DNA of 64,000 nucleotides from Octopus vulgaris (taxonomy: Eukaryota). Location of the stretch: assembly GCA_951406725.2 (NCBI GenBank), contig OX597835.1, positions 43,896,001 through 43,960,000 on the forward strand, read 5' to 3'. Within the stretch, counting starts at the first letter, position 1, and each line of letters opens with the position of its first letter. Below the pieces are notes generated by a model, which was not told the DNA's origin, made no database searches, and was given only the letters and a program-made list of their open reading frames with translations. Shown here one piece after another: positions 35,711 to 36,118 of the stretch. Position numbers and translations under genes: made by a program.

Positions 35711-36109
35711 ATATATTAAGTGTAGGAAGAAATGGAGCTGAACGAAGATTTAGCAAAATTCCTTTTTATTATTTTCTACATATGGTTCGAAGGCTGCAAA
35801 GTCCCTAATTCGGATTGAATAAGGAGTCCAGACTGGGTGATTCTCTTCTGCTTTCACCCAGTCTGGCGTCTACGCATATAGATAGACAGTTTGTGCCATT
35901 TATTTCATGGGCTCCTCGTGAGCGTTTGTCGAAAAGCTTGCAGTGCATTTTGTTGGAGAATAAAGTTCCTGGATTTTCCTGAAGAGAAGGCTGCAAAATG
36001 GACTCCTTATTCAATCCGAATTAGGGACTTTGCAGCCTTCGAAACATATGTAGAAAATAATAAAAAGGAATTTTGTTAAATCTTCGTTCAGCTCCATTTC
36101 TTCCTACAC

Positions 36110-36118
<9 letters not shown>
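35711..36118. mobile_element. Penelope-like/retrozyme element with 120-bp inverted arms (35711-35830 / 35999-36118)
   Basis: Arms are near-identical reverse complements; the right arm overlaps an intact hammerhead and runs into (TA)n. Confidence 0.7.
35973..36058 (+). ncRNA. Type I hammerhead ribozyme, canonical core
   Basis: Stem I ATTTTC/GAAAAT, core CTGAAGA (35979-35985), 12-bp stem II GAAGGCTGCAAA/TTTGCAGCCTTC, GAAA (36041-36044), stem III C-ATAT-G, predicted cleavage after GTA at 36052. Confidence 0.85.

Follow-up and report, generated by a model that had tools for sequence, protein, structure and literature searches.

A two-armed, 5'-truncated insertion of a Hydra-like Penelope-like element in Octopus vulgaris, probably produced by two reverse transcription events

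We have analysed a stretch of 64,000 nucleotides of the Octopus vulgaris genome (assembly GCA_951406725.2, contig OX597835.1, positions 43,896,001 to 43,960,000), hereafter the window, in which a two-armed insertion of 553 bp occupies positions 35566-36118 with TA runs on both sides (Table 1). At each of its outer ends this unit presents a 3' end of the element to (TA)n, that on the right belonging to the direct arm (P, 36118) and that on the left to the inverted arm (D, 35566). The P arm ends at an internal AATATAT site and is 96-98% identical to 29 other best copies of the family; the D arm corresponds to reference positions 3354-3622 and spans from the interior of hammerhead stem II to the distal end of the element, so that it holds only the 3' half of the hammerhead. 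Each arm has private sequence, 35867-35998 being found on the right only and the tail on the left only. As had been claimed in the original prediction, a segment of the hammerhead is present a second time in inverted orientation and with GAAC in place of GAAA: 119 of 121 positions match between 35710-35830 and 35999-36119. The A-to-C change falls on hammerhead position 15.1, and GAAC was seen in one of 178 arm contexts, some of which overlap. The parts assigned to the stretch 35711-36118 are all present, but this extent is too short, because the left arm continues for 144 nt as family sequence that is missing from the right arm, and the insertion must therefore be drawn from 35566 to 36118.

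At the junction of the two arms the D arm stops in stem II (at the equivalent of 35999), jumps to 35866 by way of a 3-nt TGG microhomology with about 135 nt skipped, and is followed by 13 copied nucleotides, after which the P arm runs from 35841. The 13-bp hairpin predicted at this point (35828-35840/35854-35866) is indeed perfect, because the 13-nt junction piece is the reverse complement of 35854-35866. It is absent at the equivalent site of other copies, where ordinary family sequence continues upstream, and it is a scar of the junction. The locus as a whole is an ordinary insertion of a variant Penelope-like element (PLE) family, a transposon scar, and it lies in the TA tail of an element of a second high-copy family, for which a first look at the genome gave 1,992 candidates. 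The hammerhead-like motif of this second family reads GGACC(A/G) CTGATGA, with GTCAC/GTGAC as stem II, GAAA, a 2-bp stem III and a bulged stem I; this family too has inverted partial partners, and its 3' ends fall at two sites separated by about 50 nt. Further to the left is the look-alike of a non-LTR retrotransposon 3' end, with (TTA)n runs on both sides, which may be of the R4/Dong type with a restriction-like endonuclease tail.

Table 1. Features of the insertion and of its surroundings in the 64-kb window.
Feature	Position	Strand	Basis or remark
tRNA gene	12185-12256	+	Rfam, 54.9 bits
Common SINE-like repeat, two copies	33020-33103 and 36571-36654		
Non-LTR retrotransposon 3' end look-alike	about 34560-35100	-	by eye
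End of second high-copy family	35270-35514 (motif about 35348-35392)	+	hammerhead-like motif
Left flank, likely target microsatellite, (TA)n followed by (TCTA)n	35515-35565	.	sequence
Inverted "long-end" D arm	35566-35830	-	4 mismatches in 265 nt against family copy L003
"Tail" separating the near (P) end site from the far (D) one, about 144 nt	35566-35709	-	D arm only
Private A-to-C change, GAAA to GAAC	35785	-	partial copy
Templated junction piece, 13 nt	35828-35840	-	
Direct "short-end" P arm, 5'-truncated 3' pLTR	35841-36118	+	reference 3195-3474
Candidate transcription start or RNA 5' end (A in CCATT)	35898	+	pile-up of family arm 5' ends
Type I hammerhead motif	35973-36058	+	core and stems
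Predicted self-cleavage site after A36052, GTA (GUA) triplet	36052-36053	+	hammerhead consensus
Right flank, (TA)n, likely target microsatellite	36119-36189	.	sequence
Direct duplication of 195 nt, 97%	36701-36895 and 37098-37292		

The hammerhead of the P arm has a stem I of 6 bp (ATTTTC at 35973-35978 and GAAAAT at 36053-36058), the core CTGAAGA (CUGAAGA in RNA) at 35979-35985, a stem II of 12 bp (35986-35997/36029-36040) which is extended by an inner hairpin to 55 nt in total, GAAA at 36041-36044, and the palindrome ACATATGT (36044-36051) as stem III, which as a monomer has 2-3 bp. The core CUGANGA, GAAA, NUH and three helices of a type I hammerhead are thus all present, and the motif is the only match of the type I descriptor on both strands of the window. 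Its parts are where the original prediction had placed them, but the term "canonical" was an overstatement for a motif with a stem III of only 2-3 bp. Rfam returned no hammerhead family at the gathering score in the window, nor at E<=10 in 35000-36500. A second GCCTTCGAAAC...GTC word further upstream in the pLTR was discarded as it has no matching stem I. In the fold predicted at 37 C stem II reaches a probability of 0.95 and stem III a mean pair probability of 0.07-0.12; the full hammerhead fold is predicted to lie 2.7-2.8 kcal/mol above the ensemble, and the 8-bp duplex of the palindrome to have -7.0 kcal/mol. Cleavage by the hammerhead is predicted to be weak in the monomer, and it would be expected to be better in a dimer or together with the protein of the element. 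This folding fits the dimer-type PLE hammerheads of low activity (PMC4209133), which in that description are likewise of type I, with a helix III that is palindromic, unstable and fit for cleavage as a dimer, and an enlarged helix II, and of which pairs on opposite strands 100-700 bp apart are already known; unlike those, the motif predicted here has a much longer helix II and a conserved inner hairpin.

Conservation of the hammerhead was addressed by a paired-change test on 21 variants from several subfamilies, picked by hand from 96 distinct extracted motifs, with the core being forced by the extraction pattern for most rows of the alignment. In this alignment 87.9% of cells were paired, as compared to 84.2% in shuffles (0/500) and 36-46% in slid controls, and the stems held 32 double changes vs 16 expected; covarying pairs in the same 21 variants were not above shuffles (8 vs 7.4, 248/500). 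A sister family found by BLAST keeps the hammerhead core, with CUGAUGA and GUC. These alignments suggest that the hammerhead is an ordinary pLTR ribozyme of the element, of predicted activity and kept by selection in the source elements. In the window copy it is likely a passenger.

A search of the octopus's own genome (2.8 Gb) gave 1,426 first-look candidates for the family, 40 of which were scored. Chance can be dismissed as the origin of the hammerhead motif, since its 24-nt 5' half has 270 exact matches in the genome vs 0 for the reversed control, and a degenerate hammerhead pattern, which also catches sister families, has 2,910 matches, again vs 0 in the control. Copies reach upstream by varying lengths into a frame for a reverse transcriptase (RT) with a C-terminal endonuclease, which bears out the reading of the locus as an insertion of Penelope-like type that includes a partial pLTR in inverted orientation, and the autonomous Penelope partner that was to be sought in the genome proved to be the family itself: copy L086 has an open 900-aa RT plus GIY-YIG frame with the motifs KDHK, FDIANF, PMGS, YRDD and YIG, and the element, of about 3.6 kb, is autonomous. 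Direct pLTR-ORF tandems are present in L045, L084 and L085, where the 3' end joins a 46-nt leader before the start codon, and from these the layout of the element reads as pLTR-ORF-pLTR; because of the tandems the window copy can be described as a 5'-truncated 3' pLTR with an inverted partner. One family copy (L035, oriented about 1490-7250) is split by an LTR-retrotransposon-like insert with gag, protease, RT and integrase-like frames. Five others on different chromosomes (L106, L108, L116, L056, and L080) have a common 5' end (reference 2952) and similar flanks, a pattern which suggests that one copy spread inside another repeat.

Short, non-coding, palindromic and high-copy units, many of them of merely 200-400 bp, could also be taken for a stand-alone retrozyme, or for a DNA transposon of the MITE kind, bounded by terminal inverted repeats. 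The copies are, however, a nested series of 5' truncations derived from a 3.6-kb element which encodes RT, the loci examined contained no short hammerhead unit in tandem array, and the outer ends are unequal and fixed while the inner ends vary, which is unlike terminal inverted repeats. This continuity of the copies with the ORF led us to rule out both origins, which we hold to be extremely improbable. The non-LTR retrozyme that has been described (bioRxiv 10.64898/2026.07.22.740005) is composed of tandem non-coding hammerhead units of 150-400 nt, whereas the present family is composed of truncations of a coding element.

The 900-aa protein has 262 homologues at E<=1e-10. Pfam gave nothing above cut-off over the whole ORF and no RT match, the weak GIY-YIG match (E 0.027) remaining below cut-off, and a PDB sequence search with the protein gave 0 matches at E<=1. 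In the family protein DKG is altered to DKT (QSDKTRN), and the RWK position reads RIRWL, RIRWF or RMRWL, RW[KR] being found in 97 of the 120 best homologues out of 262. The endonuclease is without CCHH and has CxxC and CxH flanking the conserved E and N (CALCNSE...NSIVQNSFRC[PT]H). There are eight Cys in all and none between residues 411 and 785, where an Asn-rich stretch is found; the zinc-finger-like CxCx5C linker that precedes the endonuclease in the Hydra clade was missing from every copy whose linker was read, both in this family and in sister subfamilies. A CxCx4-6C linker is present in 105 of the 120 best homologues out of 262, and seven endonuclease-bearing homologues without it show the same Cys cluster with another spacing; the closest of the homologues bear Hydra motifs. 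A different PLE family, beside a copy of ours in L038 (oriented, minus frame 3059-2073), keeps the CxCx5C linker (CKCRIKSKC).

These features recall the Hydra clade of C-terminal EN+ PLEs as described for Hydra-1_Obim and Penelope-13_HM (Craig et al., 2021, PMC8557442), which likewise have a single ORF with RT and, at the C terminus, an endonuclease of the GIY-YIG type. Shared with that description are DKT, KDHK, the lack of CCHH, and CxxC/CxH around the conserved E and N; a type I hammerhead in sense orientation, placed close to the 3' end, which has a palindromic stem III of short length and in several elements the CUGAAGA core; and (TA)n targets and the inverted 5'-truncated copy, the latter noted for Penelope-13_HM. 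In the same source the clade has the CxCx5C linker and RWK, whereas here there is no linker and RWL/RWF is found; most of its elements are below 3 kb, as compared to about 3.6 kb and 900 aa; stem II has 3-7 bp and short loops (File S2), as compared to 12 bp plus the inner hairpin (55 nt); and the tail has 30-40 nt, as compared to about 150 nt, confined to one arm in 66/70 pairs. Hydra-1_Obim, going by its published hammerhead and linker, both of which differ, is a different family. Judged by its motifs the family is an EN+ PLE that is Hydra-like, and we have not filed it as a formal member of Hydra: the one feature of the clade that it lacks is the CxCx5C linker. The RWK position reads RWL/F.

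The ends of the arms were scored across the family. Arms end either at the near site P or, some 150 nt further downstream, at D, the far site, with (TA)n after each, and (TA)n adjoins the 3' ends of both arm types in nearly all of the loci inspected. Among 195 distinct arms 96 ended at P and 99 at D, the loci having been picked by similarity or pattern and thus not being random samples, with some duplicated (L105 is counted twice, and L092 and L094 look duplicated). Head-to-head pairs were found 70 times, and 66 of them, including the window insertion, were D+P, as compared to three D+D and one P+P (binomial p 8e-16 vs 0.5). Of the four pairs that break the D+P rule the three D+D pairs come from an older subfamily in which the 5' pLTR is rearranged, and two of the three look duplicated. 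The remaining 55 arms had no partner in the paired set; many abut TA directly, and three have a very short partner that ends at the other site. In the sister family (about 75% identical), for which 33 loci were read by eye, a P partner was present in 14 of 14 resolved D arms, three being unresolved. The junctions of the head-to-head pairs are scattered, mostly with short overlaps or gaps, and the longer arm may be either P or D. Arms within an insertion differ by 1.3%, vs 3.2% to other copies (mean of medians), the divergence within the insertion being the smaller one in 27 of 30 pairs that overlapped sufficiently (from 44 D+P insertions). The 5' ends of the two arms lie <=25 nt apart in 10 of 44 pairs vs 3.6 expected (p 7e-4), and still do so in 5 of 33 vs 1.6 expected once a hot spot is excluded (p 0.016).

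Taken as a two-armed, 5'-truncated insertion of an autonomous PLE with a Hydra-like protein, the locus probably owes its mirror shape to two reverse transcription events during insertion. The GIY-YIG domain would nick both strands of a TA repeat, and each nicked 3' end would then prime a cDNA, from P in one case and from D in the other, both being AUAU-type sites that could pair with the TA primer. The template would be RNA uncut by the hammerhead, probably one and the same molecule for both cDNAs; both cDNAs would halt near the RNA 5' end or at stem II, and repair would join them. Such a sequence of events has precedents, in that a purified PLE is reported to cut and extend both strands, to start reverse transcription at two sites bounding the tail and not to need hammerhead cleavage (PMC11167929), and inverted 5'-truncated copies and one-sided tails are described as general PLE features (PMC8557442).

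The near-identity of the arms, the frequent near-coincidence of their starts and, in the window, a junction which has the form of a 13-nt loop closed by a 13-bp stem could all be expected if one cDNA had folded on itself and been copied back, or if a later DNA rearrangement had inverted it. A P-primed cDNA, however, could not supply the tail of the other arm, and nothing would make a D-primed one stop at P; in many pairs, that of the window included, each arm holds sequence missing from the other; and random loss at P in a later rearrangement predicts about half D+P, not 66/70. With the mixed pairs left unexplained, fold-back or later deletion was rejected, and we consider such an origin improbable. 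Two independent RNAs or ribonucleoproteins from the same active source, each giving one arm, with the P/D asymmetry coming from the geometry of a protein dimer, would account equally well for the D+P rule and for the similarity of the arms if few sources are active at once, and an overlap of the arms that reaches about 940 nt (L081) would demand strand displacement on a single RNA. The coupling of the arm 5' ends beyond chance, which persists without the hot spot, speaks against such an origin, since one broken RNA end is an easier explanation for it than two RNAs; we regard the use of two RNAs as rather unlikely. The similarity of the arms taken by itself could alternatively be due to gene conversion, or to a single source element that supplied two RNAs.

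For the two reverse transcription events we tentatively put forward, as a possibility, that a PLE-type protein dimer copies one uncut RNA twice, with one subunit beginning at the near AUAU site and the other about 150 nt further out, each time primed by one strand of the cut TA repeat, and that TA targeting is due to RNA-primer pairing and the endonuclease and not to the linker. The targeting part is suggested because a linker-less lineage still lands in TA repeats. The closest comparison is with PAc, a Poseidon PLE of Anolis studied in vitro (Frangieh et al., 2024, PMC11167929), where two RT starts bound the tail, as P and D do here, and where, as in the scheme proposed, both strands are cut and extended, targets are AT-rich, uncut RNA is the main template and a dimer is predicted. 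The start sites of PAc are described as lying in the first 120 nt of the ORF, with no homology to the target and no strand preference, whereas those found here are located within the pLTR, upstream of the start codon, look like the TA target, and in 66/70 pairs serve one arm each. Since no strand preference of the start sites is described for PAc, the rule of one end each goes beyond that work. Earlier publications already describe inverted copies, tails on one side only, pairs of hammerheads on opposite strands and Hydra elements of octopus; the near-strict one-each end rule, the 150-nt tail and the linker-less TA-targeting lineage were not found in the open-access literature searched.

The 5' ends of the arms were examined for traces of the template RNA. 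Out of 69 arm 5' ends in reference 3150-3326, 26 lie within 3248-3264, an interval chosen after the fact, where 6.6 are expected, and in the sister family 5' ends pile up at the equivalent spot. Position 35898 is on this pattern likely to be an RNA 5' end, and its CCATT may be initiator-like. Many arm 5' ends were also seen in reference 3373-3403 (the 3' strand of stem II plus stem III), in a biased sampling, as if RT stalled at the long stem II. At the predicted cut the number of copies falls from 365 to 340 (6.8%), and over the next 5 nt from 391 to 365 (6.6%), so that genome-wide there is no excess of copies starting at the cut over the neighbouring control. Because copies start at the cut no more often than beside it, the inserted RNA appears to be mostly uncut, and 5' ends defined by cleavage were dropped as unsupported. 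Nine distinct contexts are without ATGTH before the cut, being made up of four point changes, four starts <=3 nt from the cut and one insertion. An 8-nt insertion sits exactly at the predicted cut in L175, a stutter of ATGTAGAAAATA crosses it in L209, and four P arms begin <=3 nt from it (L201, L202, L203, and L205); these could reflect a rare use of cleaved RNA. Contigs from four presumed-RNA runs, when compared with the pLTR of L081, were fragments of many family copies and held no start, end or strand information.

The original prediction had further proposed that read-through RNA would form 120 bp of dsRNA that sequesters the ribozyme, giving mutually exclusive folds. In silico a long duplex does abolish the hammerhead fold in RNA read through from the left, and the arms are 98% identical, but functional alternative folds are not to be expected with the hammerhead fold predicted to be 75 kcal/mol less stable, a gap that leaves no room for toggling. 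Since the duplex is the more stable by this margin and the antisense arm would be transcribed first, the arrangement would be a trap and not a switch. A transcript starting at 35898 would exclude the left arm, and in it the hammerhead is predicted to stay free. Nor is the association of ribozyme and inverse copy special to this locus, with 70 head-to-head pairs among 195 arms and junctions that vary from pair to pair; what is private to the window copy is its junction hairpin and GAAC. The long ORFs of the window include no coding frame of note, and neither a sign of transcription nor a host gene was seen there. It is thus very improbable that the inverted copy has been retained as a means of toggling the ribozyme; the mirror copy is likely a by-product of writing the element into DNA, rather than a regulatory switch. 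By analogy, read-through dsRNA would more likely feed into silencing or editing than act as a switch. In Drosophila, inverted copies of Penelope (PMC3681739) are described as likewise rearranged, with long inverted repeats and the potential to form dsRNA; those produce siRNA.

The interest of these observations is in a mechanism that is family-wide and not in the window locus. The formation of tandem and inverted structures and the bias for microsatellites are described as open questions of PLE transposition (PMC8557442), and both can be put to the test in the in vitro system already published, now that there is a young family which has an open frame and a tail of about 150 nt that lets both ends be scored without doubt. 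The loss of the CxCx5C linker in a lineage which retains TA insertion is a natural test of the hypothesis that the linker does the targeting, and the neighbour in L038 with its CxCx5C linker offers a natural comparison. The rule of one short and one long end across copies points to a copying mechanism that can be tested, and the dimer rule, if true, would account at once for the pLTRs in inverted orientation, for a tail on one side only and for the coupling of the 5' ends.
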